Positions 7,088 through 59,137 of a stretch of DNA of 64,000 bases are shown here, in pieces (within the stretch, counting starts at the first letter, position 1; the number at the start of each line of letters is the position of its first letter). The notes under the pieces were generated by a model. It searched no databases, had not been told where the DNA came from, and saw only the letters and a program-made list of their open reading frames with translations. Origin of the DNA: Candidatus Nomurabacteria bacterium. GTDB taxonomy: Bacteria > Patescibacteriota > Patescibacteriia > HK-STAS-PATE-3. Location of the stretch: contig CP060223.1 in the NCBI GenBank assembly GCA_023898465.1, positions 384,001 through 448,000 on the forward strand, written 5' to 3'. The translations under genes and the position numbers were made by a program.

Positions 7088-8101
7088 TTACTTTGTCATT
7101 AAAATGCTGCGCTTGTAGGATTCGAGGTTTTCTAGAGCAACTCCGGTGCCGCGAGCAACACAGAGACGGGTATCATCAGCCACATAGGCTGGCACACCGG
7201 TAGCTTGAGACATGAGTCGATCAATGTTGCGTAGCTGTGAGGATCCGCCACTAAGTACCATGCCTTTATCAATGACGTCGGCAGAGAGCTCAGGAGGAGT
7301 TTCCTGGAGCACTGATTTGACTGCTTGGATAATCCCAGCCAGCTCATCTTGAATTGCCTCAGTCACATCGTCAGACAGCACGGTAATGGTTTTTGGTAGA
7401 CCGCTAATAATATCGCGTCCGCGAACTTCTAGAGCCAATTTCTCATCCATTGGTAAAGCAGACCCGATCATTATTTTGACTTGCTCGGCTGTTTGCTCGC
7501 CAATTGCTAGGCCATATTTTTTGCGTATGTATTCCTGAATTGCGGCATCTAATTTGTTTCCTCCAATGCGCACTGAGGTATTTGCCACAATACCACCCAG
7601 GGAAATGACAGCAATTTCTGAGGTACCACCGCCAATATCGATAATCATGTGCCCAGAGGCAGATCCGATCGGGATATTTGCACCAATAGCCGCTGCAATA
7701 GGCTCTTTGATAATATACGCGGCCTTTGCTCCAGCGGCTAAGGTTGCGTCGACCACAGCTCTTCGTTCAGTTGAGGTAATGCCGGCCGGTACAGCAATCA
7801 TAACTTCAGGGCGGAAAAAGCGGACACCGCCAGAAGCTTTATTAATAAAATACCGCAGCATTGCTTCAGTCGTGCGATAGTCGGCAATTACTCCATCGCG
7901 AAGTGGTCGATATGCCACAATAGTGTCAGGGGTTCTTCCTAACATTTCCTTTGCTTCATCACCCACTGCGAGCACCTTCTTGTCCATCAATGAGACTGCC
8001 ACCACAGACGGTTCATTAATCACAATACCACGCCCGGGCACATGGACGAGCGTTGACGTGGTACCAAGATCAATCCCCAATCGTTTCAAGAAAAAAGCCA
8101 T
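7088..8101 (-). CDS. mreB: MreB paralog (copy 2) embedded in the glycan locus
   Basis: 337 aa with GIDLGTTSTLV, DIGGGTSEIAV and LSGGSSQL actin-fold motifs. It is clearly a paralog of the partial copy at 1..905. Confidence 0.85.
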   Translation of the reverse strand: MAFFLKRLGIDLGTTSTLVHVPGRGIVINEPSVVAVSLMDKKVLAVGDEAKEMLGRTPDTIVAYRPLRDGVIADYRTTEAMLRYFINKASGGVRFFRPEVMIAVPAGITSTERRAVVDATLAAGAKAAYIIKEPIAAAIGANIPIGSASGHMIIDIGGGTSEIAVISLGGIVANTSVRIGGNKLDAAIQEYIRKKYGLAIGEQTAEQVKIMIGSALPMDEKLALEVRGRDIISGLPKTITVLSDDVTEAIQDELAGIIQAVKSVLQETPPELSADVIDKGMVLSGGSSQLRNIDRLMSQATGVPAYVADDTRLCVARGTGVALENLESYKRSILMTK

Positions 8102-8102
8102 G

Positions 8103-10043
8103 CTATTTCTCCAGGATGAAGGTCAGGTCGTGTGATAATGGACCGCTTAAATATACGCCATCGTTTTCACTTTGCAGATACTCGAGTGGTGTAATGGTGT
8201 GCGACTTATATCCAGGGTGGATACGTATTTCTAAGCTATGTGGCTCTGTGCCTGGCTGCTTCTGCACATCAAGCTGATAGTCACCCTTCTTTAGAGTATC
8301 TGTAATAGCTTTTGGTAGACGATATTGGATGTGTAAGTCCCCTTCTTCAAGTGGCTCAATCGAAGTGAAGCCTTGAATAACTGTTTTGCCTAAGTCTTCG
8401 TCAAGAGTGGGTTCAGTTGCTTTACCATTCTGAATTTTATCGTTGGTCAGGAAACCCTCTGCACTAATGAGCTCACTGCCAAGCGGGACGTAGATGCGAG
8501 TGTAGGTTCTATAGCGGGTAGACTTCCAGGTAATTGTCCCCTCGTTGCGGTAGTGCACGTTAAGCGTAGCAATAGCCTCACCATCAACCATTTCAACTGA
8601 GTAGCTAATAGTTCTCTTTACTCCCGGGTCACTCTTAAGCGAAGCCATGTTTGCATCAACAACATACAGGTAGTCATCTTCTGTTTCCTTTACTTCTCCA
8701 CCCCAGTTTTCGTCCTGAATAATCGCCTGCAGTTCAGGATCCTTGAGATAGAGCAGAATTTGCTTTTCCTCAACATTTTCTAGGAAGGTTGACCAAAGTC
8801 TATTCCAATCCGATTGAGGGAGCGCTAAAAGACGATCCATGAGGATTTGTGACATCTCGCCGATGATTTCTTTACGTGCTAATTCGTCTATACCTTGTTG
8901 ATAATATCCCTGTTCAACTTGGTACTGTAATGTGTCAACGAAGTTGTCACGTGTAAATTCGATATTTTGAACAGTTATACTGCCGGTTAGTTCGATCAAT
9001 GACTCAATAAAACTTGGAGTAACCGCGATTACTCCATCAAAGGATTTTACTGGACCGCGTTCTTGCTCATAAAACCAGAGGGCTTGCTCAGCAGCTCGTG
9101 GAAAATGTGGTGACCAGTTAGAGTCTCGTAAAAACCATTGCGTACTTCGTAAATATTTTTGCAGCGGCTCGGGTGGGTCAATATCCAGGAACTTTTCAGC
9201 TGGAACGTCGAGATTATAAATGTTATCTGTGGTAAAAGTCTCAATTTCGCCAGCATCAACCTTTAAGACGCCATAGGTGCCGATAAATCCACCGGTTGGA
9301 CGGAGTTCAGTATTATTCTGCAGCAAGAATAAGTAGGTTTGCTTATCAGGATAGCCGGCTAAAACTGGAATAGTGCGCGCTAGAGATGAAAACTGAGCCA
9401 CCGCGCTCTGCACCAAAGGAAGCTTTTCGCTAATGGGGTCAATTGCGCTTTGTAGTGGGCCAACTAAGCCCGTCTTCGGCACCTTGTTAAACTCCTCCAC
9501 TGATTGCGTAATTTTGGTTTCAGCATCACGTAGGACAGGATCAGCGTCATGTAGTTTACCTAAAAGCACTCGCTTATCTTGCGGTGTTAAACTCTTTAAG
9601 CTTAATTGCCCAGAAGCGTTTTGAAATGGAACAATCGTAGTATTCGCAAAATCTGCAATTTCATGAATTGCTTGACTGCTGGTGATTGCGGCTTGAATCA
9701 GATGATCGGCTGCTGTGTATTGACGTGCAGCATATGGCAAAACGCGAAGCCAGGCTAGCCCTCGCAGAGCGCTATCCGCTTCTTCAAACTTTCCAATCGC
9801 ATCGTTTAAGGAAATCGTGGCAGCAGAAAAATCCTGTGCCTCAAAATGTTCCTGGGCATTGAGAAGCGCGTTTTGACCGTCCTTGGCAGCTCGAGCAACC
9901 TTCACAGCAGATGGATACGAGAAAGCACCTAGAATAGCGATGATGATGATAAGACTGCCTAAAACAATCCCGAGGACCTTAGGCCACCGTCTCTTTTGCT
10001 TACCCTTCTTATGTAGATTTATAGATGTTGCGCGTTCTGGCAC
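8103..10043 (-). CDS. DUF4012-like membrane-anchored protein, commonly found in cell-envelope polysaccharide loci
   Basis: N-terminal basic segment plus one TM, followed by the characteristic segment LLQNNTELRPTGGFIGTYGVLKVDAGE. The family assignment is from memory of DUF4012 signatures. Confidence 0.5.
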   Translation of the reverse strand: MPERATSINLHKKGKQKRRWPKVLGIVLGSLIIIIAILGAFSYPSAVKVARAAKDGQNALLNAQEHFEAQDFSAATISLNDAIGKFEEADSALRGLAWLRVLPYAARQYTAADHLIQAAITSSQAIHEIADFANTTIVPFQNASGQLSLKSLTPQDKRVLLGKLHDADPVLRDAETKITQSVEEFNKVPKTGLVGPLQSAIDPISEKLPLVQSAVAQFSSLARTIPVLAGYPDKQTYLFLLQNNTELRPTGGFIGTYGVLKVDAGEIETFTTDNIYNLDVPAEKFLDIDPPEPLQKYLRSTQWFLRDSNWSPHFPRAAEQALWFYEQERGPVKSFDGVIAVTPSFIESLIELTGSITVQNIEFTRDNFVDTLQYQVEQGYYQQGIDELARKEIIGEMSQILMDRLLALPQSDWNRLWSTFLENVEEKQILLYLKDPELQAIIQDENWGGEVKETEDDYLYVVDANMASLKSDPGVKRTISYSVEMVDGEAIATLNVHYRNEGTITWKSTRYRTYTRIYVPLGSELISAEGFLTNDKIQNGKATEPTLDEDLGKTVIQGFTSIEPLEEGDLHIQYRLPKAITDTLKKGDYQLDVQKQPGTEPHSLEIRIHPGYKSHTITPLEYLQSENDGVYLSGPLSHDLTFILEK

Positions 10044-16224: not shown

Positions 16225-17653
16225 AAAGTGTTTGTATGTCTGTACGGGTTATCCCTCCAACTAGGAAGAAGGCAATGGCATAAATAATCGCGGCGATCGG
16301 TAGCAGGGCAAAGACAGACAAGCTAGAACCAAGCGCTAAAAGAATCCCTACCATAATCGCAGAAGCAATGAGGCTGCGAGCCCAACGTCCGAGGAGCCAA
16401 ACGATGCGATACTTCGCCACTTTCCATGACCAGATTGTGCTGAGCACAAAGAGTACTAATGCACTAAGGAGCGCTGCTGCACTTGCTCCAACATGCTGCC
16501 ATTGTGGGATAAGAATAACATTCGCCACGATGTTAACAATGGTTGTAATCATTATATTAATCGTGTGAATTTTCTGTTTATTACATGCTCCAAGCAAGGT
16601 TCCGGCAATGAGATTAATGAAAATAAATGGAAGGCTAAGGATGGAAACCTGCAAAGCTGAAATACTCTGGGCGTAGGTTGGCCAAAGATTTGGGTTGGTG
16701 ATCAGAGGACCAGCGAGGACAAAAACACCAGCCGCAATTGGTGTGCCAATACTGAGCATGAAAAAATATGATTGTTCAAGCAAGCGTCGCAGCTTATCCT
16801 GTGAGCTAAGATAAAGCTCACTGAAGGCCGGAAAGACACTATTAGAGATTGCTAAAGGTAAAAACTGAATAGCATACGTAAGCTTGTAGGCAACACTGTA
16901 CCATCCCACATGTGCGTCATCCGTCATCTGTTTAAGTAAGACAATATCAACGTAGGCATAGAGCTTCGTGAAGATGCCAGCCAGGAAAAACGGTGTTGCC
17001 CACTTAGCAAATTGCTTGATAACCGAAAGATCAATCCGAGGAGTAACTTTGAATTTCAGCGTCCTGACCATATGCCAAAGTGCATAGGAAAAGTTTGCCA
17101 AGGCGCCGAGCATCACGGCAATACCCAGGATAATCGGACTAGGGTTAATTACTAAGCCAACAATGCCGAAACCTAGCACAAAGACTTGGTGAATAATCGT
17201 TCCAGTGGCTTCGTAGCGGAAGTTTTGATACCCACGAAAAATGCCATACAGCGTAACGCTGAAGGATTCGATAACCATTGAGATTCCAGCCAGCCAAAGC
17301 ACTTCTTGGGTAAGAATATCGTATCCTAAAATGAGTGCGGTAACCCAAATTCCGGCATAGGCCAGCACCGCCAAGAAAATTTTAATCGCCAGTATGGTGG
17401 AAAGATAACTTTGCGTTTTCTCTTTTGCTCGAGCGACTTCACGAATAAGTACTGGGTTAAGTCCCAGATCAATACCAATGCTAAAGATCGTGACAAAAGA
17501 AATAGCAAAGACATAAATACCCGTATGCTCAGGTGAAAGTGTGCGAGAATAAAAAACAAAGTACCCAAATGAGAGCACTTTTTGTGCAATATACGCGGCC
17601 GTGAGATAGGTCGAGTTTCTAAGTACTTTTCCTGAACTTTCGGAAGGTGACAA
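16184..17653 (-). CDS. wzx: Polysaccharide biosynthesis protein / Wzx-type flippase (MOP superfamily)
   Basis: 489 aa with about 12-14 TM helices and a Wzx-like N-terminus. Confidence 0.65.
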   Translation of the reverse strand: MSPSESSGKVLRNSTYLTAAYIAQKVLSFGYFVFYSRTLSPEHTGIYVFAISFVTIFSIGIDLGLNPVLIREVARAKEKTQSYLSTILAIKIFLAVLAYAGIWVTALILGYDILTQEVLWLAGISMVIESFSVTLYGIFRGYQNFRYEATGTIIHQVFVLGFGIVGLVINPSPIILGIAVMLGALANFSYALWHMVRTLKFKVTPRIDLSVIKQFAKWATPFFLAGIFTKLYAYVDIVLLKQMTDDAHVGWYSVAYKLTYAIQFLPLAISNSVFPAFSELYLSSQDKLRRLLEQSYFFMLSIGTPIAAGVFVLAGPLITNPNLWPTYAQSISALQVSILSLPFIFINLIAGTLLGACNKQKIHTINIMITTIVNIVANVILIPQWQHVGASAAALLSALVLFVLSTIWSWKVAKYRIVWLLGRWARSLIASAIMVGILLALGSSLSVFALLPIAAIIYAIAFFLVGGITRTDIQTLYGIIRRRNGATAE

Positions 17654-17699
17654 GTCGGAACCCTCTCACGAAATTATGATAAATCTGACGGAGTGCGAA

Positions 17700-18179
17700 C
17701 TAGCGCTTTTGCCACTGCGGTGCACGTCGAGCACGCTTCAGACCTGGCTTCTTACGCTCCTTCACGCGGGCGTCACGAGTAAGCCACCCAGCTTGTTTGA
17801 GAGCTTTACGATGCTCAGGGTCAGCCACGAGCAGGACGCGAGCAATGCCATGTCGAACTGCTTCAGCCTGACTGTGCTTACCACCACCCTGCACTTTTAC
17901 GGTGTAAGCAAAGCGCTCATCAGCTGCAACAAGATCAATCGGTGATTTCACGATGGTATGCAATTCCGGTTCTGGGAAGTACTCATTCAGTGGCTTTTCA
18001 TTCACTGTAATCTCCCCTACACCACCGGCTAAGCGGCGGACGCGAGCGACTGCGGTCTTACGTCGACCCACAGCATATAAGTAGTCTCGCTTCTTTGGTG
18101 CAGATTTTTTAGGTGCAACACCACGAGCTTTTCGTTCTCGGGCAACCTTTTGCTTTACCGTTGTCTTGCTTGTAGCCAT
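17700..18179 (-). CDS. rpsI: 30S ribosomal protein S9
   Basis: Ends ...GGGKHSQAEAVRHGIARVL...ARVKERKKPGLKRARRAPQWQKR. Confidence 0.9.
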   Translation of the reverse strand: MATSKTTVKQKVARERKARGVAPKKSAPKKRDYLYAVGRRKTAVARVRRLAGGVGEITVNEKPLNEYFPEPELHTIVKSPIDLVAADERFAYTVKVQGGGKHSQAEAVRHGIARVLLVADPEHRKALKQAGWLTRDARVKERKKPGLKRARRAPQWQKR

Positions 18180-23367: not shown

Positions 23368-26061
23368 TTATGCCCCGTGACACTTTTTATACTTTTTGCC
23401 TGAACCGCAAGGACAAAGGTCGTTACGACCCACTTTTGGTAAGGCGTTTGTGGTTTCTTGCGCGCTTGGTGCTTTTGCAGCCGGAGTATTTGGGTCTGAT
23501 GGTGAAAAAGCCGACTTAGCATCTTGTTGCACCTTAGCCGGCGCGGTCATAGTAAGTACTCGTCGCTGCATTGGAGTTGCTTGCGCAATATTCTGCGTCT
23601 GAGACATGCGGAAGAGGGTGAAAACTATGGAATTGTTTACTGAGTCAATGAGTTGCGTAAACATGCCATACGCCTCTTTTTTGTATTCCACTAGAGGATC
23701 GCGCTGTCCATAGCCACGCAAGCCAATTCCTTGGCGCAATCGGGTCATGTTGTCGAGGTGCTCAATCCAAAGCGTATCAATAGAGCGTAAAGCTACTCCT
23801 CGCTCTACTTGGCGCATCCTCTCAACGCTAATATGTTCCTCAATGCGGGCGTACTCTGTTTGCGCTAAATCAACTAAGTAGTGAATGATAGCTTGTCGCG
23901 CCGCTGCATCCGCAGCAGTATCCCCTGCTTGGGCACGTAATTCATCAAGCTTAATTCTTTTTTCAATGGCAATTGGAAACATGGAATCCACAATTTCGTA
24001 TATTTCTTCAATATCCCAGGCGTGCTCATCCTCAGAAGCGGTGTGAAAAGAAACTGCTTTAGTAATCTCTTCCTCAATCGATTTCAGTACGATTTCGCGT
24101 AATTTTTCCGGCTCAGCTGACAGGTATTCGTTTCGCTTGCGATAAATGACTTCGCGATGTTTATTCATCACGTCATCGTATTCAACTAAATGCTTACGAA
24201 TATCAAAATTATGACCTTCAACTTTTTTCTGCGCTTGCTCGATTGATCTGGAGATAAGCTTATTTTCGATTGGCATATCCTCAGGCAAGCCAAGACGTTC
24301 CATAATACTCTTCATGCGATCAGAGCCGAAGATGCGCATGAGATCATCATCCATGCAGACAAAAAATTGTGTCGAACCTGGATCGCCCTGACGCCCGGCT
24401 CGCCCGCGGAGCTGATTGTCAATCCGACGTGATTCGTGTCGCTCAGTGCCGATAACGTGCAGACCGCCAACTGAACGTACAAATTCAGCTTCCTGCTCTT
24501 GATAAGGCGCTCCACCGAGGATAATGTCGACGCCGCGACCTGCCATGTTTGTTGCAACGGTGACCGCACCTTTGCGGCCGGCTTGTGCTAAAATCGCCGC
24601 TTCTTTTTCGTGGTTTTTTGCGTTCAATACCTCGTGCGGAATCCCTTCGCGCTTGAGTAATTCACCTAAAATTTCATTCTTTTCAATCGATATAGTGCCG
24701 AGCAACACTGGTTGTCCCAGCTCATGACGGCGCTTTACTTCTCGCACGACGGAAAGAAACTTCCCTTTTTCGTTTTTATAAATACTGTCAGGCAGGTCAA
24801 CGCGGGCTAAGGGTTTATTTGTTGGAATAGTTACAACCTCGAGCTCGTATATTTTTGAAAACTCTTCCGCTTCAGTCATTGCTGTGCCAGTCATACCGCT
24901 TAACTTATCGTAAAGTCGGAAGAGGTTTTGGAAAGAAATGGTAGCGAGGGTTTCGCTTTCCTTCTTAATCTCCACTCGTTCTTTTGCTTCAATGGCCTGA
25001 TGCAAGCCCTCAGAATAACGGCGGCCAAACATTAAACGACCAGTAAATTCATCGACAATAACCACCTCACCATCTTTTACCACGTAATCTTTATCTCGTT
25101 GGAATAATGCGTGCGCTTTTAGAGCTTGTTCAACTCGATGAACTGTCTCAATTCCACCCGCCTCATACATATTTTCAATATGCAAAGCTTGTTCAATTTT
25201 AGCGATTCCTCCCTCGGTTAAGGTGGCGCTACGCATTTTCTCATCAACGTTATAGTCAGCTCCTTCGCTTAGGCGTTGGACTAAGTCAGCATAACGATAA
25301 TTTTCTTCACCAGAATCTTCAGCAGGGGCGGAAATGATAAGCGGAGTGCGAGCTTCGTCAATTAAGATGGAATCAACTTCGTCGACAATGGCGTAATGTA
25401 ATGCCCGCTGTACTTTCAACGAGGCATCCGGCACCATATTATCGCGCAGATAATCAAAGCCAAATTCATTATTAGTTCCATAAGTGATATCAGCTGCGTA
25501 CGCGTCTTTACGCTGAACTGGTCGCAAATTATTCCATTGCGGATCATCTGATTGAAACTCAGGGTCGTAAAGAAACGCAGCCTCGTGCTGAATAGAGGCC
25601 ACGCTGAGGCCTAGGGCGTGGTAAACCGGGCCCATCCACTGTGCATCACGTTTGGCGAGGTAGTCATTTACCGTAACCACATGTACGCCTTTACCGCTGA
25701 GAGCATTTAATGTTACCGGTAAAGTGGCAACTAGGGTTTTTCCTTCACCAGTTTTCATTTCAGCAATCATGCCCTTATGAAGGACCATGCCACCAATTAA
25801 CTGCACATCAAAATGGCGCATGCCAAGTTTTCGCTTGGCCGTTTCTCTGACTATCGCAAAAACCTCAACCAAAAACTTTTCCGCAGTAGGTGTTTCCTGC
25901 TCTCGGAGCTCGGATTGAATTTCTTGCACGCGCTGCAAAATAGCGGCATCGTCCATGCCTTGTATCTTCGCCTCTAGCGCCGAAATCTCGTCAACTGTCT
26001 TCTGCAGTGACTTCACGGTGCGGGCGTTTGCATCTCCAAACAATTTCGTCAAAACCGACAT
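23368..26061 (-). CDS. secA: Preprotein translocase ATPase SecA
   Basis: 897 aa with DEAD-like motor motifs and a C-terminal zinc finger [14 protein letters not shown]. Confidence 0.95.
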
Positions 26062-52082: not shown

Positions 52083-52832
52083 CTAGGCTCCATTCCAGGA
52101 GTGCTGAGGATTTTTTTTGCAATGGTCAGCTACTAACTGTCCCGCCTGAAGTAAGCTGTCGAAGGATTCTCCGCCATCGCCCCACCAACCACGAAGGATT
52201 TGGTAGCTCATAGTCCCCTGCTGTATGTAATGATTATTTACATCGGTGATTTCTAGCTCACCGCGAGCTGACGGCTGCAGGGTTTTGACGACTTCAAACA
52301 CACTACTATCATACATATATACACCAATCACAGCCAAATTAGACTTTGGCTCACTTGGCTTTTCTACTATTTGTACGAGCTTTTCTCCTTGAATTTCAGC
52401 AATGCCAAATGATTGAGGGTTTTCTACTTCTTTGAGGAAAATCTTTCCGCCCTTTTCTTGTGCTTCAAAGTCTTTTACTGCTTCTTGGATAGGATCTTCC
52501 AAAATGTTATCTCCTAGGATGACGGCCACCTTATCACCATCAGCAAAGTGCTCAGCCAAACCTAAAGCCTGAGCAATTCCACCGGCTTTTTCTTGAACTT
52601 CATAGGAAAGCCGCACTCCAAGCTCATCACCCGAGCCAAGTAGCTCTAAGAAATGACCAGCGTGTCCGCGTCCCGAAACAATCAAAATATTTGTCACTCC
52701 AGCTTGCTTCAGCGTAAGTATTGGATAATAAATCATTGGCTTGTTATACACTGCCAATAAGTGCTTATTTGTTACTTTGGTGAGTGGCGCAAGTCGACTA
52801 CCAGTTCCACCAGCTAAAATAATACCTTTCAT
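52083..52832 (-). CDS. rmlA: Glucose-1-phosphate thymidylyltransferase-like sugar nucleotidyltransferase (short form)
   Basis: MKGIILAGGTGSRLAPLT...NKPMIYYP, the G1P nucleotidyltransferase signature. Confidence 0.7.
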   Translation of the reverse strand: MKGIILAGGTGSRLAPLTKVTNKHLLAVYNKPMIYYPILTLKQAGVTNILIVSGRGHAGHFLELLGSGDELGVRLSYEVQEKAGGIAQALGLAEHFADGDKVAVILGDNILEDPIQEAVKDFEAQEKGGKIFLKEVENPQSFGIAEIQGEKLVQIVEKPSEPKSNLAVIGVYMYDSSVFEVVKTLQPSARGELEITDVNNHYIQQGTMSYQILRGWWGDGGESFDSLLQAGQLVADHCKKNPQHSWNGA

Positions 52833-52836
52833 GAGA

Positions 52837-53661
52837 TTATCCTTTCGTGGTCAAATACTCTTGTAAGGCTGCTTCCCAATGCCGCAGAGCAGGGGCTTTG
52901 GTATTTTGCAGTATAGAAATTTTTGGACGTTTGGCTAAGCGAGGAAAATCATTTGTGGCTATTGCCTCAACCGGCACATCAAGTTTTTTATAGGCAAATA
53001 TTTTCTTTGCAAAATCAAACCAAGTAGTGCTTCCACTATTTACCAAATGATAAATCCCAAATGGCGCTTGTTCTCGAACTAAGCGATAAGCTGCATCAGC
53101 TAAATCTTTTGCATAAGTTGGACAACCATGCTGATCATTCACCACACGTAAAACCCTCTTTTCTCGTGCTGCAGTTAACATCATATCTACAAAATTCTTT
53201 CCATTTCTCCCATAGAGCCATGAGGTACGGATCAAATAAAATCGCGTTGTGGCTTCTTGTAATAAACTTTCACCTTGCAGCTTCGTTCTCCCATAAGCGT
53301 TTAATGGGTTGGGAGTTTCGGTCTCAGTATATCCTCCGTCTTTTTCTCCATCAAACACATAATCAGTCGAAAAATGCATCATGACTGCACCAATATCAGC
53401 ACAAGAAGTTGCTATATACCCTACCGCATCTCCATTCACTTTATTAGCAACATCTTCGTGATTTTCACACTCATCAACAGCGGTATAGGCAGCGGCATTT
53501 ACCACTAAATCGGGTTTTAGCTTTTTGAGTTTTTTCTTTACATCATCAGCATCACTAATATCCAGGTCTTCTTTATCCCATAAGGTGCAAGTTTCCGCGG
53601 CGAACGCTCGTTGCAGCTCAAAACCAAGCATACCTTTGGCGCCAAGTATTAAGACCTTCAT
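52837..53661 (-). CDS. rmlD: dTDP-4-dehydrorhamnose reductase
   Basis: 274 aa SDR with MKVLILGAKGMLG and the active-site YxxxK region. Confidence 0.75.
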   Translation of the reverse strand: MKVLILGAKGMLGFELQRAFAAETCTLWDKEDLDISDADDVKKKLKKLKPDLVVNAAAYTAVDECENHEDVANKVNGDAVGYIATSCADIGAVMMHFSTDYVFDGEKDGGYTETETPNPLNAYGRTKLQGESLLQEATTRFYLIRTSWLYGRNGKNFVDMMLTAAREKRVLRVVNDQHGCPTYAKDLADAAYRLVREQAPFGIYHLVNSGSTTWFDFAKKIFAYKKLDVPVEAIATNDFPRLAKRPKISILQNTKAPALRHWEAALQEYLTTKG

Positions 53662-54677
53662 GCTGAGTCTCCTTTAGTATCTCCGTACTGCTTGGCGTAG
53701 TACTCTTGATATTCGCCTGATTTCAGTGGGCGCCACCAGGCTTCATTCTTTTTGTACCACTCTACTGTTTCTTGAATGCCGTCCTGAAAAGTATAGCTTG
53801 GCTTCCAGCCGAGATTTCTCAATTTTTCACTATTTAAGGCATAGCGCAGATCATGACCTGGACGATCTTTTACCCGCTCAATACTTTCCTCACCCTTTCC
53901 TAGCTGCTTCAATAACTCAGAGGTAAGTTCAAGATTTGTGATGCGCTCTCCGGAACCGATATTATATGATTGACCTAAGTCGCCTTTCCGTAATACTAAA
54001 TCTACCGCGCGAGAATGATCGCGTACAAAAAGCCATTCACGAACATTTTTCCCATCCCCATACAGCGGAACCTTTTTACCCTCAAGTAAATTGGTAATAA
54101 AAAGCGGAATCACTTTTTCGGGATAATGATGCCACCCATAATTATTTGTTGCGTGTGTGATAAGTACTGGCGTCTCGTAGGTATGCCAATACGCCATTAT
54201 AAGATGTTCGGCAGCGGCTTTTGAGGCTGAATACGGACTCGTAGGTCGGAAAGGATATTCTTCACTTGCTTCCCCCTCAGCCAGACTGCCAAAAACCTCA
54301 TCTGTTGATATATGCAAGAAACGGGAAACTTTTGATGCACGCATTGCTTCAAGTAGCACGTGTGTACCCATGACATCGGTGCGAAGGAAGGCCTCTGGAT
54401 CATGGATTGAACGATCCACATGTGTTTCTGCAGCATAATTTACTATCACGTCGGGCTGAAAGTCTTGTATTGCCTTCTTTACTGCAAGCGCATCACAAAT
54501 ATCAGCCTGTACAAAATGATAGCGTGAATTATCAGCTACACTCGCTAAATTAGCTAAATTGCCGGCGTATGTGAGTTTATCATAATTTAGCACCTCATCT
54601 TCTGGATGTTCTGACAGCACAAATCGGATAAAATCCGACCCCATAAAACCAGCCCCTCCGGTCACCAATATACGCAT
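53658..54677 (-). CDS. rmlB: dTDP-glucose 4,6-dehydratase
   Basis: MRILVTGGAGFMGSDFIR...YDKLTYAGNL. The YxxxK motif and the overall length fit RmlB. Confidence 0.9.
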   Translation of the reverse strand: MRILVTGGAGFMGSDFIRFVLSEHPEDEVLNYDKLTYAGNLANLASVADNSRYHFVQADICDALAVKKAIQDFQPDVIVNYAAETHVDRSIHDPEAFLRTDVMGTHVLLEAMRASKVSRFLHISTDEVFGSLAEGEASEEYPFRPTSPYSASKAAAEHLIMAYWHTYETPVLITHATNNYGWHHYPEKVIPLFITNLLEGKKVPLYGDGKNVREWLFVRDHSRAVDLVLRKGDLGQSYNIGSGERITNLELTSELLKQLGKGEESIERVKDRPGHDLRYALNSEKLRNLGWKPSYTFQDGIQETVEWYKKNEAWWRPLKSGEYQEYYAKQYGDTKGDSA

Positions 54678-54726
54678 ATGTACTTAGATTAGCCTGATTT
54701 TAGGGTAATTGGCAAGACCTGTTTCG

Positions 54727-54755
54727 TTGACATTACTCAAGCGCTTTTGTAAGGT
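54727..54755 (+). promoter_or_regulatory. Sigma70-like promoter: TTGACA-N17-TAAGGT, upstream of the 54802 ORF
   Basis: Read directly from the sequence. An AGGAG Shine-Dalgarno lies 7 nt before the ATG at 54802. Confidence 0.5.
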
Positions 54756-54801
54756 TTCAACCTCGAGGCCATGTGCACATACTTAGCCCAGGAGAACTGA
54801 A

Positions 54802-55092
54802 ATGCCTGATTGCAATCTCAACGTCCACGGCATCCGAGTACCTGACGAGCGCTGGCGGAAAATGAAAGCAGTTCATGATTCCTGCGAAACTGCAGGTGTC
54901 CAGCTGCCAGAAGAAGTCGAGATCTACTTCGATGGACATGAACCTGATCCGAGCGGAATACTCACTGACCTGGCTGACCCCATCGTCACCAAGTGGGAGC
55001 GCGAGGAAGACGACGATCAGGAAGGTATCGAGATCGACCTGACTCAGCTTCCAGAGGGCGTGACCAAGCTTCGCGTCACCATCAGCTACTAG
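54802..55092 (+). CDS. Hypothetical hyper-acidic 96-aa protein; GC3-rich, compositionally foreign
   Basis: Good Shine-Dalgarno and ATG, with a terminator 20 nt downstream. About 26% of residues are D or E. Codon third positions are strongly G/C-biased, unlike the surrounding genes. Confidence 0.5.
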   Translation: MPDCNLNVHGIRVPDERWRKMKAVHDSCETAGVQLPEEVEIYFDGHEPDPSGILTDLADPIVTKWEREEDDDQEGIEIDLTQLPEGVTKLRVTISY

Positions 55093-55110
55093 CACCCGCC
55101 CTCGACACAG

Positions 55111-55145
55111 AGTCATAGCTCATCAAGCTATGGCTCTTTTTCTTG
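55111..55145 (+). terminator. Rho-independent terminator: 9-bp stem agtcatagc/gctatggct, then CTTTTTCTT
   Basis: Read directly from the sequence. It overlaps the 3' end of the convergent minus-strand ORF. Confidence 0.6.
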
Positions 55146-55485
55146 CTCCTAAAAAGATAAAGACTACTCCAATAGCCAGCGGTACTAGCATGTGCACGGG
55201 AATCTCACCTTCAGCAATGATGCCAATAATGAGACCCACAAACACTGCACCGGCGCTGAGATATCCGCCAAGTCGTTCATATTTCCAACCCAGGGCAAGA
55301 CCAATAAACATTATGGGAAAAACGCTAAGCCACGTGTTATCCCAAAGCGTATAACTCGAGTCAATAAAGGGTAAGGGATTTCCATAGCCAAAGTAGAATG
55401 GAAGTCCAAATGAAATGACTAAAAGGCTGAGAATGCGCATAGTCCAGCGCAGAGCTCTATACTGAGAAGAAGAAAAATGTCTCAT
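55123..55485 (-). CDS. Hypothetical polytopic membrane protein (about 120 aa) with native-like AT-rich composition
   Basis: Three or four hydrophobic helices. The start is chosen at the ATG (MRHFSSS); the ORF track extends to 55521. Confidence 0.45.
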   Translation of the reverse strand: MRHFSSSQYRALRWTMRILSLLVISFGLPFYFGYGNPLPFIDSSYTLWDNTWLSVFPIMFIGLALGWKYERLGGYLSAGAVFVGLIIGIIAEGEIPVHMLVPLAIGVVFIFLGARKRAIA

Positions 55486-55507
55486 GTCTGTAGTATACTC
55501 CCGCCTT

Positions 55508-55527
55508 CCTTGTTTAAACAAACAAGG
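55508..55527. promoter_or_regulatory. Hairpin / inverted repeat CCTTGTTT-AAAC-AAACAAGG in a divergent intergenic region
   Basis: An 8-bp perfect inverted repeat with a 4-nt loop, lying between the minus-strand membrane ORF start and the plus-strand GTG-start ORF. Candidate operator. Confidence 0.3.
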
Positions 55528-55603
55528 CTTGCTTGATTTGCAATATGTTGCTAAGGTCTTTTGTCTAGCTCATTTGCACATTCACTGAACAAGGAGCACA
55601 AAG

Positions 55604-55972
55604 GTGAAGTCCAGGCAAAAAACGGGTCCGATTTCAAGATATCTTGCTTGGTGCACTTCACGAGAGGCCACTGAGCAAGAACGCCGAGACAGGCTAAAGC
55701 AGCGTCTTTCAGGGGCAATCCCACGCGGTACCTGCCAGTGGCTGCGCGAAGAATGCGACATACCGATCGATGGACTCTTCAAGAAAGAAAGCATCACGGT
55801 CCTAATTACTAGAAGAGGTCCTGGAGCAAAAGCTCTTGGTCTCTCGCCTGAACTCAAAGGGACTGATGAGCAACTCAGAGCTCTCCAGGCTGCTTGGCGA
55901 GGCGCAATCACAGTTACCTGGCAATGGACTGAGGATCGAAGCACTCTGCGTATTAGCTTCAAGCGGGCTTAA
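55604..55972 (+). CDS. Hypothetical 122-aa protein with a GTG start preceded by an AAGGAG Shine-Dalgarno
   Basis: The ORF has a consensus Shine-Dalgarno 7 nt upstream of GTG, and the hairpin terminator at 55995 follows its stop. No family recognised. It overlaps an alternative-frame ORF, 55836..56447. Confidence 0.4.
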   Translation: MKSRQKTGPISRYLAWCTSREATEQERRDRLKQRLSGAIPRGTCQWLREECDIPIDGLFKKESITVLITRRGPGAKALGLSPELKGTDEQLRALQAAWRGAITVTWQWTEDRSTLRISFKRA

Positions 55973-55994
55973 TCCTCAATACTCACCACAACAA

Positions 55995-56030
55995 AGACCT
56001 GTTCGACGTTTGTTCGCAGGTCTTTCCTTA
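55995..56030 (+). terminator. Hairpin agacctg-N15-caggtct followed by TTCCTTA; putative terminator
   Basis: A 7-bp perfect stem read directly from the sequence, immediately upstream of a TTGACA -35 element. Confidence 0.45.
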
Positions 56031-56059
56031 TTGACAAAAATGAGGTTTTGGACTATATT
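56031..56059 (+). promoter_or_regulatory. Near-consensus sigma70 promoter TTGACA-N17-TATATT
   Basis: Read directly from the sequence. It lies 60-75 nt upstream of the first of the two paralogous small ORFs. Confidence 0.55.
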
Positions 56060-56120
56060 ACCTCGTTCTTTACATCCGTCTAGTACCGTGCAGGAGGGCG
56101 AACAAGTGCCAGTAAAAAAG

Positions 56121-56447
56121 ATGGTGAAGATTATGAACCACGTTGAAATCCTGAAAAACACTCCGCTCCTTCGGGAGTTCCGCTTGGCAACTGCTGAGGA
56201 TATCGCGCCAGGAGCAGAGCTGTTCGAGGCTGAGGTGGGCTTTGATCTCAGAATTGAACAACCACGTCGGATCCGTCTGGCCGACGAACCGATACAAGAA
56301 GCTTACGGAGAAGATCATGTGGTCTACTCCCAGGCCAATGGCCTGAAGGACCTTACGGTCACCGTACAACGCTTCCTGTCCACCGAAGCAGAACCTGAGA
56401 CCCTCTTCCCACACCGCTACACAATCCTCTACCTCGTCAAGATCTAG
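56121..56447 (+). CDS. Hypothetical small protein, paralog A (about 105-109 aa), GC3-rich
   Basis: Same length as the downstream ORF 56478..56801 and about 30% identity with it, including the C-terminal ...LYLVKI versus ...LYLAKN. The start could be at 56121 or 56133; the ORF-track frame is open back to 55836. Confidence 0.5.
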   Translation: MVKIMNHVEILKNTPLLREFRLATAEDIAPGAELFEAEVGFDLRIEQPRRIRLADEPIQEAYGEDHVVYSQANGLKDLTVTVQRFLSTEAEPETLFPHRYTILYLVKI

Positions 56448-56477
56448 CGCTCACAGGGCTTCCACCAAGGAGGATTC

Positions 56478-56801
56478 ATGTCCACGATGATCAACCGTCA
56501 AGATATCCTGAACCGGGCACCGGATCTTCCGGGTCGCCGCTTGGTCACCCGAGACGAAGTGATCCCGGGCGCGAAGCTCGATATGGTTCATGTTGACCTG
56601 GACGGCAAGGCTCAGTGGCTTCAGCCGATCCAGATCGACGAAGAAGCCACCGGTGAGCGGGTAGGCACGACCTACGTGTTCTACCACTGCGACGGTCATC
56701 CCAGTCAGTGCTTCGTCCCCTTCGATGATTTCGTTGGTGTCGAGGTGGAAGCAGAGAGCTGCGGACCCTTCCTCACCACCCTCTACCTCGCGAAAAACTG
56801 A
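56478..56801 (+). CDS. Hypothetical small protein, paralog B (107 aa), GC3-rich
   Basis: Perfect AAGGAGG Shine-Dalgarno 5 nt before the ATG. About 58-60% GC with foreign codon usage. Followed by two terminators. Confidence 0.55.
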   Translation: MSTMINRQDILNRAPDLPGRRLVTRDEVIPGAKLDMVHVDLDGKAQWLQPIQIDEEATGERVGTTYVFYHCDGHPSQCFVPFDDFVGVEVEAESCGPFLTTLYLAKN

Positions 56802-56810
56802 CCCCCCTCA

Positions 56811-56848
56811 AAGCCGCCAATATCACTTCATGTGTGAGGCGGCTTTTT
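56811..56848 (+). terminator. Rho-independent terminator: aagccgcc ... ggcggctt with an inner tcac/gtga stem, then TTTTT
   Basis: Read directly from the sequence, starting 10 nt after the stop of paralog B. Confidence 0.65.
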
Positions 56849-56860
56849 CATTAAACAAAC

Positions 56861-56892
56861 GACAGGGCACAGAGGCCCTGTCTATCTGTTTT
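56861..56892. terminator. Bidirectional terminator: gacagggc-acagag-gccctgtc, with T-rich tracts on both sides
   Basis: An 8-bp perfect stem. Plus-strand side TATCTGTTTT; minus-strand side GTTTGTTT. It serves the convergent ahcY gene. Confidence 0.6.
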
Positions 56893-56959
56893 ACAAAGTT
56901 ATGCAAATTTAGATTACTGCTTCCGGTCGTAGTGCAGCTTCATTGCTACTCATAACTTC

Positions 56960-59137
<2,178 letters not shown>

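Follow-up and report, generated by a model that had tools for sequence, protein, structure and literature searches.

A mosaic, GC-rich islet of small accessory genes, partly of phage-family type, between ahcY and rmlB in a Candidatus Nomurabacteria bacterium

The subject of this analysis is a small group of genes, here called the islet, that spans the ~2.3-kb gap between ahcY and rmlB in a Candidatus Nomurabacteria metagenome-assembled genome (MAG). It was studied within a 64-kb stretch (the window; positions 384,001 to 448,000 of the 1,082,586-bp contig CP060223.1), and all coordinates below are window positions unless they follow the name of another contig. On the minus strand, the gene order is rmlC-pfkB-ahcY, then the islet, then rmlB-rmlD-rmlA (Pfam labels, contig L001), with rmlA, rmlD and rmlB at 52083-54677; the rml genes are therefore split, with rmlA, rmlD and rmlB on one side and ahcY, pfkB and rmlC on the other, just as a first-pass annotation of the same DNA had described. 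The islet comprises four open reading frames (ORFs), A to D, all antisense to the host rml and ahcY operons, and one gene for a DUF7670 membrane protein. The sequence of protein A is that of USN53944.1 (H6760_02125) from the source MAG. From left to right, the features are as follows, where GC1, GC2 and GC3 denote GC content at the three codon positions, pI the predicted isoelectric point, and z the folding stability of a hairpin relative to shuffled sequence.

54727..54755, plus strand: putative promoter of gene A, TTGACA-N17-TAAGGT, with a perfect -35 and a -10 of only 3/6, read from the sequence and missed by the consensus scan
54802..55092, plus strand: gene A (NCBI H6760_02125), 96 aa, acidic (pI 4.3), GC1/GC2/GC3 0.67/0.35/0.62
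55109..55137, plus strand: terminator hairpin of A, a 12-bp stem followed by TTTTTCTT, fold z = -4.96
55123..55521, minus strand: DUF7670 membrane-protein gene (PF24709, E = 1.7e-12), GC3 0.39
55604..55972, plus strand: ORF B, 122 aa, GTG start with AAGGAG 7 nt upstream, basic (pI 10.3), GC1/GC2/GC3 0.57/0.55/0.46
55993..56025, plus strand: hairpin after B, z = -3.0, with a weak U-tract
56031..56059, plus strand: C-D promoter, TTGACA-N17-TATATT, 11/12 consensus positions
56121..56447, plus strand: gene C, 108 aa, a divergent paralog of D without its Cys motif, GC1/GC2/GC3 0.65/0.33/0.62
56478..56801, plus strand: gene D (NCBI H6760_02140), 107 aa, AAGGAGG Shine-Dalgarno sequence, GC1/GC2/GC3 0.65/0.39/0.71
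56810..56846, plus strand: terminator of the C-D unit, a hairpin followed by TTTTTCATT, z = -4.2
56861..56882, no strand assigned: second GC-rich hairpin, placed to end minus-strand transcription of ahcY, z = -4.35

The compositional anomaly of the islet is real and far beyond chance, although it takes the form of a mosaic rather than of a uniform 2.2-kb block. Against a window GC of 44.6%, sliding GC reaches 0.55-0.58 at 54800-55100 and at 56150-56900, stands at 0.51-0.52 at 55550-56000, and drops back to 0.43-0.45 at 55100-55550. Genes A, C and D have a whole-ORF GC of 0.53-0.58 and show the coding-type order GC1>GC3>GC2. All 50 window ORFs of at least 150 aa that begin with ATG lie at GC3 0.30-0.46 (median 0.39, standard deviation 0.036), and A, C and D depart from this reference set at z = 6-9 (C by 6 and D by 9 standard deviations); among the coding-like ORFs in the 64 kb with a length of 60 aa or more, they alone have GC3 >= 0.55. 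In the three genes combined, C-ending codons account for 0.79-1.00 of Phe, Tyr, Asn and Ile codons, relative to ~0.2-0.35 in native genes, and the codons GGG and AGG are absent. The GC-rich patch reported by the first-pass annotation thus stands as regards A, C and D (GC3 0.62-0.71 versus 0.30-0.46), but its single inserted 2.2-kb cassette gives way to at least two separate GC-rich units, A and C-D, placed around a native gene. ORF B is intermediate, as stated there (GC 0.526, GC3 0.46).

The gene between the two GC-rich units is the DUF7670 gene, a resident gene of native composition, encoding 120 aa from an ATG at 55485 or 132 aa from a TTG at 55521. Beside it, ORF B is best described as an orphan, a candidate ORF of uncertain coding status. 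Its coding score is weak but positive, it was not called in the NCBI annotation, and no relatives were found in phages, IMG/VR or Joint Genome Institute (JGI) contigs.

The region has been recovered in three independent assemblies, which rules out an assembly artefact. In addition to the source MAG, these include L001, a contig of the Logan assemblies that is 99.2% identical over 15.3 kb, islet included, and L002, an 811-bp ENA contig that contains A and the neighboring DUF7670 gene. The comparison with close relatives covers L001 and L002, and both carry the islet sequence that they cover. That the GC-rich stretches represent structured RNA, decaying DNA or an assembly chimera is scarcely credible. 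The weak coding statistics of B and the mildly stable RNA fold of its region (z = -2.05) would suit such an explanation, but Rfam and ARAGORN gave no RNase P, tmRNA or riboswitch that could account for the GC peaks: across the window Rfam has no match at its gathering threshold, and relaxing the limit to E <= 1 brought up only a spurious snoRNA match at E = 0.3. A, C and D also combine a coding pattern with protein homologs, third-position changes in D, and presence in the three assemblies. For A, C and D this explanation is refuted, while B stays a candidate. The phage relatives of A and the third-position changes in D, both described below, likewise suggest that the first-pass annotation was right to see real, foreign or accessory genes rather than decay.

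Sequence comparison places A in a small family of phage proteins; relatives were found only in phages and viral contigs. A word-index search with A returned the self match and one 81% allele only. Searching GenBank phages with tblastn, on the other hand, produced full-length matches to gp43 of Bacillus phage Shbh1 (33%, E = 1e-7) and to an uncultured 485-kb phage (LR745208; 38%), and a four-sequence profile led to eight IMG/VR loci at 30-44% identity. The viral nature of these contigs is indicated by terminase and strong PHROG matches; for example, L031 has a large terminase two small ORFs upstream of its A-like gene. Conserved motifs are spread along the whole protein (V-G, P-x-E-x-W-K-K-M-K, A-C-E-A-A-G and P-x-E-V-x-x-F-F-D-G-E-x-P-D, with L-P-x-G-V-x-x-I-R-F-x-x-S-Y at the C-terminus). 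Relative to the Shbh1 gp43 family, A is alike in full-length alignment (31-44%), motifs and protein length, and it differs in being monocistronic in a bacterial chromosome. No match to A was found in PHROG, Pfam, NCBIfam, PADLOC or the PDB, and its AlphaFold2 (AF2) model, computed from a two-sequence alignment, is of low confidence (predicted local distance difference test, pLDDT, 44).

Two other assignments for A were considered and rejected. A similarity to TerD (PF02342) scored 17 bits versus a cut-off of 25.3 and extended over 30 residues only; the signal was confined to the two Nomurabacteria alleles and was gone with the family profile. A relationship between A and C/D was likewise discarded, their similarity being not beyond chance.

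The composition of A points the same way as its relatives. A has 55% GC in a 45% genome, its best viral relatives have 53-56% GC, and the A-like genes of phages show a GC3 that is equal to that of their own phage or lower. As the phage family has no intrinsic GC bias, the GC of A is a foreign signature.

The genomic neighborhoods of A-like genes also invite an alternative to simple carriage, namely, that A is tied to nucleotide-sugar or glycosylation chemistry as an accessory subunit or regulator travelling with sugar genes, such that its adjacency to rmlB would not be accidental. In L028 (5065-7146), the gene immediately before the A-like one encodes a PfkB-family kinase and the gene after it a HAD-like hydrolase; in L027 (3961-9741), it lies among an AsnB-like amidotransferase, a glycosyltransferase (GT)-like protein and an NDP-sugar epimerase; and in L031 (4089-7801), it stands between the terminase and a GT4 glycosyltransferase. 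These neighbors echo the place of A in the window, where rmlB is its immediate neighbor and pfkB is 3 kb away. However, sugar genes occur in only 3/8 viral contexts, a count that comes with no background-frequency statistic, and the other contexts feature RNase HII or unknown genes; Shbh1 gp43 lies among small early genes, the pfkB of the window is related to the L028 kinase only at the family level, and A, with a putative promoter to itself, runs antisense to the rml operon. We therefore regard a link to sugar chemistry as unlikely.

The transcription signals around A and C-D bear out the first-pass description in part. Its near-consensus promoters hold for C-D (11/12), but the A promoter has a -10 of only 3/6 and was not called by the scan. 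Its clean terminators hold for A and D, where the hairpins are stable (z -5.0 and -4.2), but the hairpin after B is without a good U-tract. In the region as a whole, promoter-like sites (5 vs. 2.6 in shuffled sequence) and terminator-like sites (5 vs. 3.0) are not above expectation. The same TAAGGT -10-like hexamer is common to the putative promoters of A (54750-54755) and B (55552-55557), in each case 17 nt past a TTG-type -35, and the L002 version of the A -10 reads TATGGT. The A hairpin reaches into the convergent DUF7670 gene, sharing its final five codons, and the U-tract of the hairpin is the complement of the Arg-Lys-Arg codons of that gene; the terminator of a foreign gene would thus be partly built of native coding sequence.

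Comparison with the two related contigs uncovers variation at the level of alleles. The 811 bp of L002 show 42 differences from the window, of which ORF A accounts for 39; the A protein is only 81% identical, while the flanks of A are ~99.4% identical in DNA; dN and dS (nonsynonymous and synonymous divergence) are 0.107 and 0.32 for A versus 0 and 0.012 for the adjacent membrane gene, whose DUF7670 protein is identical in L002. Relative to L001, A and C are identical, and D has 17 differences in 130 bp, mostly at third codon positions (dN 0.029, dS 0.15). Hypervariability is thus confined to A and part of D. The third-position changes in D argue for purifying selection on a real protein, and the dN/dS ratio (omega) of 0.2-0.3 suggests that such selection acts on these proteins. 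Given that synonymous sites are also divergent, whole alleles or tracts may have been imported by homologous recombination from a diverged pool; this would be the simplest reading, and hypervariability by point mutation fits less simply. A diversity-generating retroelement was rejected as a source of the variation, in that the changes seen in A and D are not adenine-specific, affecting all four bases and in many cases leaving the amino acid unaltered; the surroundings also hold no second copy of the variable tract, as expected of a template, although no genome-wide search for a reverse transcriptase was made.

In the case of C and D, the gene models themselves required revision. The NCBI model of C, H6760_02135 (193 aa, 55866-56447), crosses both the hairpin after B and the 11/12 promoter, its extension is without coding signature, and every homolog of the family starts at the position of the 108-aa form. 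The model is thus over-extended, and in its excess length it masks the unannotated ORF B. On the evidence of the extension and the homolog starts, C should be read as a protein of 108 aa, or of 113 aa from an alternative GTG at 56106 that has AGGAGG 8 nt upstream, and B is left as a free ORF.

C and D are clear paralogs, aligning over their full length without gaps at 30% identity. Pairwise BLASTP gave no similarity between them, and the relationship emerged from a Smith-Waterman shuffle test (score 105 vs. 25 +/- 4.5 for shuffles; z = 17.6). A HMMER profile search of 1.84 billion representatives identified 34 proteins of the C/D family at E <= 1e-3, almost all of 88-141 aa and none of them named; three long multi-repeat matches to the profile (including P0027 and P0028), which are Ig-like, Calx-beta or unannotated, were judged spurious. 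Accordingly, A and C/D each fall into a family, both unnamed, where the first-pass annotation had recognized none for any of the patch proteins. The C/D consensus reads FRLAT-x2-DI-x-PGAEL-x-M ... YVFYHC ... QCFVP ... CGPY-x-TTLYL-x-K, with a His/Cys motif, formed in the D subfamily by His70, Cys71, Cys78 and Cys95, that is kept in D and lost in C. A recent duplication is not the origin of the pair, since D shares 47-49% identity with family members found in other genomes, more than it shares with C.

The AF2 model of D is confidently all-beta (pLDDT 87.5, predicted template modeling score 0.80), and D is thus confidently predicted to be a small beta-barrel protein of an undescribed family. 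Barrels of the SH3, Tudor, chromo and WYL-like types, such as the RNA polymerase-interacting Tudor-like domains of CarD/CdnL, Mfd and UvrD, give the D model weak scores, and Foldseek returned nothing at E < 0.01. C/D proteins have no sequence similarity to any solved structure, change much too quickly to be core transcription-repair factors, and have, beyond what Tudor-like barrels have, a further helix at the N-terminus and, in one of the subfamilies, the His/Cys motif.

Nine independent genomic contexts were retrieved for C/D homologs, and across them there is no conserved neighbor or partner gene, nor does a B-like ORF lie near any homolog. The surroundings consist of housekeeping genes mixed with small hypothetical genes and, by gene content, look like small genomes of the candidate phyla radiation (CPR) type. 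Several contexts have features of their own. In L018 (7900-16400), two diverged copies lie 1.1 kb apart with a DKNYY-domain gene between them, within ~15 small hypothetical genes near lexA. In L035 (829-2197), a member lies directly beside an IS481-type transposase, and in L020 (9098-10366), a member lies downstream of a hicAB toxin-antitoxin pair, at a distance of 425 bp; the series of small ORFs that comes after it, each set apart from the next, is slightly elevated in GC3.

The first-pass annotation had taken the patch for a single cassette and had speculated that, if the organism is an episymbiotic CPR bacterium, a high-GC Actinobacteria host would be a plausible donor. GC content is all that speaks for such an origin, which we consider to be of almost negligible likelihood. 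A gene of native composition lies in the middle of the patch, the relatives of A are phages, and those of C/D stand beside what appear to be CPR-type gene sets in genomes of 35-55% GC; none of the nine contexts looked up among the 34 family proteins (0/9) is Actinobacteria-like. Nor do the Ala, Gly, Asp, Glu and His codons of the islet genes show the shift toward G or C that a high-GC donor predicts.

The organization of the islet units recurs in the family. Across ten C/D transcription units, a promoter matching 11/12 consensus positions was seen in 4/10 and one matching 9/12 in three more, and most of the ten have a strong Shine-Dalgarno sequence and a GC-rich hairpin with a U-tract. The autonomous unit of promoter, Shine-Dalgarno sequence, ORF and terminator would thus seem to be common in the C/D family. 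More strikingly, the GC3 of the C/D homolog exceeds the neighbor median in 9/9 contexts (mean +0.20; sign test p = 0.002) and is the highest of its neighborhood in 7/9, and the base that is enriched at third positions, C3 or G3, differs among loci.

A clear example of a C/D gene at a shared locus is seen in L024 (1873-2438) and L036 (4915-5570), where the C/D gene X is syntenic between fusA and uvrB. Between the two, X retains only 49% protein and 52% DNA identity, compared with 94% for EF-G and 93% for UvrB protein and 83% DNA identity in the flanks. The promoter core and the terminator of X are recognizably conserved, and the syntenic pair keeps the GC3 excess.

It might be supposed that A, C and D are native and very highly expressed, with C- and G-ending codons selected for translation. 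Their strong consensus promoters, good Shine-Dalgarno sequences and terminators and their preference for C-ending codons would be in keeping with this, but the ribosomal proteins S9 and L9 of the window have an ordinary GC3 (0.43 and 0.42, respectively), and in L024 the purine preferences are opposite, with a G fraction at purine-ending codons of 0.38 in EF-Tu (A preferred) and 0.92 in the C/D member; the varying enriched base among loci is also against it. Since EF-Tu, S9 and L9 are without the bias, the C/D bias is not the optimal-codon set of the host, and translational selection is a very unlikely explanation.

Taken as a whole, these data lead us to lean, without great confidence, toward a small accessory islet in which at least two foreign units surround the resident DUF7670 gene, with A of phage-family type. 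Under this explanation, unit 1, gene A, would have been drawn from the phage gene pool, and unit 2, C-D, from a pool of fast-evolving genes for small barrel proteins that circulates or persists in Patescibacteria. Entry may have occurred by phage- or transformation-mediated transfer, with recombination following DNA uptake or transduction and without a dedicated integrase, and the genes are presumably expressed constitutively. Islets arising through horizontal gene transfer (HGT) are documented in Patescibacteria, where islands are common and the donors in most single-gene transfers are other members of the group (PMC12455944); the islands and intra-Patescibacteria transfers reported there are consistent with an islet of two units.

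Several observations weigh against this explanation. Insertion is deduced from composition and gene distribution rather than from an empty site, and the expression signals were recognized purely as consensus matches. The islet has no mobility gene, tRNA or att-like repeat, in agreement with the first-pass annotation, which had noted no flanking integrase, transposase, tRNA or direct repeat; specifically, ARAGORN detected no tRNA across the 64-kb window, no direct repeats were found flanking the patch, and the neighboring genes include no integrase or transposase domain. No relatives of C/D were detected in phage, IMG/VR, JGI-contig or plasmid collections. Finally, the GC3 of C/D genes tracks that of the host (r = 0.75, slope 0.65), and this tracking and the syntenic pair suit genes that have long been resident and carry a bias of their own no less well than they suit repeated recent transfer.

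The main rival for C and D is accordingly that they are long-resident and that the excess of GC3 is inherent in the family, maintained by GC-biased gene conversion at a hot spot of recombination or allele exchange or by selection that acts on the mRNA, either for stability or against A/U-specific cleavage. This is quite possible, if less than probable. Its strengths are the host-correlated excess in 9/9 contexts (rank 1 in 7/9), the retention of that excess by the L024/L036 pair, and recombination tracts located exactly at these ORFs; counted on the same side is a report of higher GC3 in recombining bacterial genes (PMC4450053). Host correlation and synteny thus favor it, while effect size stands against it. 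In the 55% GC genome of L019, the excess is only +0.05, which would also fit a GC-rich source lineage; the direction of substitution is unpolarized here; and A has the same composition while its phage relatives do not, so that transfer is needed at least for A. To our knowledge, the effects of gene conversion reported for bacteria are much smaller than +0.2 GC3, which counts against that form of the rival. In sum, the universal excess and its correlation with the host weaken recent HGT as the sole explanation for C/D; the first-pass annotation had named a shared composition throughout the lineage as grounds for doubting acquisition, and this doubt touches C/D, whose homologs are GC3-rich versus the host everywhere.

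The accessory islet of two units, to return to the favored explanation, may be compared with several known systems. Like phage morons and the singly transferred accessory genes or small genomic islands of Patescibacteria (PMC12455944), the islet units have what would be a promoter, Shine-Dalgarno sequence and terminator of their own, deviate from the host in composition, and sit between host genes without an obvious role in the surrounding operon. A shares with morons the restriction of its relatives to phages, whereas C/D differ in that no phage relative was found. Unlike morons, the islet is without a prophage, integrase, tRNA or att repeat, and its units flank a native gene; a GC3 excess in every host and a syntenic locus are also unexpected for simple recent import of C/D. 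An integron cassette was rejected, as no site bounded by GTTRRRY and RYYYAAC was seen downstream (by eye, without a pattern search), no integrase is present, and the units have putative promoters of their own and hairpins followed by U-tracts.

With regard to function, the islet proteins resemble orphan immunity or antitoxin-like proteins in being small, acidic (predicted pI 4.3-5.0 for the small acidic islet proteins), fast-evolving and strain-variable, and in the tandem divergent copies seen in the window and in L018. They differ in having no cognate toxin or conserved neighbor in the nine C/D contexts and no match to toxin-antitoxin or defense profiles. A type II toxin-antitoxin or toxin-immunity pair was rejected, with no conserved partner and with B parted from C by a hairpin and a promoter. 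The suggestion of the first-pass annotation that the patch might be a defense or immunity module has found no direct support, in that PADLOC gave no match at E <= 1 for any of the five islet proteins and no partner gene is conserved. It is tempting to suggest that the products act alone as protein-binding factors in conflict-type interactions, whether between phage and host or between cells, because they are small, acidic, partnerless, strain-variable and very fast-evolving and have strong expression signals, but this is only weakly favored and held with low confidence.

Small acquired or accessory islets are already known from CPR genomes, and as an instance of HGT the present one is ordinary. 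New are the link of A to phages, the correction of the annotation (H6760_02135 and the uncalled B), and the definition of the C/D family; the family's GC3 excess and the hyper-divergence specific to its ORF between conserved ends are the part worth following. A bolder and rather doubtful proposal is that C/D stand for a type of self-contained single-gene unit in Patescibacteria that has not been described before, in which a near-consensus promoter, a strong Shine-Dalgarno sequence and a terminator frame a beta-barrel ORF of 100-130 aa, with conserved regulatory ends, an ORF turnover of ~ten times that of the neighbors, and a GC3 of ~+0.2 over the host. If true, ordinary recent HGT would give way to some process specific to the gene, the candidates being cassette-like allele swapping via the conserved ends with GC-biased gene conversion, or an arms-race factor under mRNA selection. 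C/D would thereby offer a compact test case for recombination-driven GC bias in ultra-small bacteria and for their conflict genes, and should they prove to be conflict factors, against phages or other cells, they would add to a very thin CPR catalogue of such functions.

A few further observations concern the contigs and the window. In L024, rpsJ (S10) and rplC (L3), which usually stand close together, are separated at 7822-9352 by two unannotated genes without a Pfam match; the GC content is 58% in one, with an unusual GC1/2/3 of 0.46/0.55/0.72, and 35% in the other. The source species was not found in the GTDB species-representative collection, a scan of which with RmlB returned distant, mostly archaeal loci; the best matches (L003-L008) are archaeal MAGs of Methanosarcinales, Woesearchaeota and Iainarchaeum at 50-58% identity. 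Finally, the window has a further GC peak at 24351-24650 (0.56-0.575 in 200-bp windows) within an 897-aa ORF at 23368-26061, and another at 17650-17950 that corresponds to the gene for ribosomal protein S9, where GC1 is high and GC3 ordinary.

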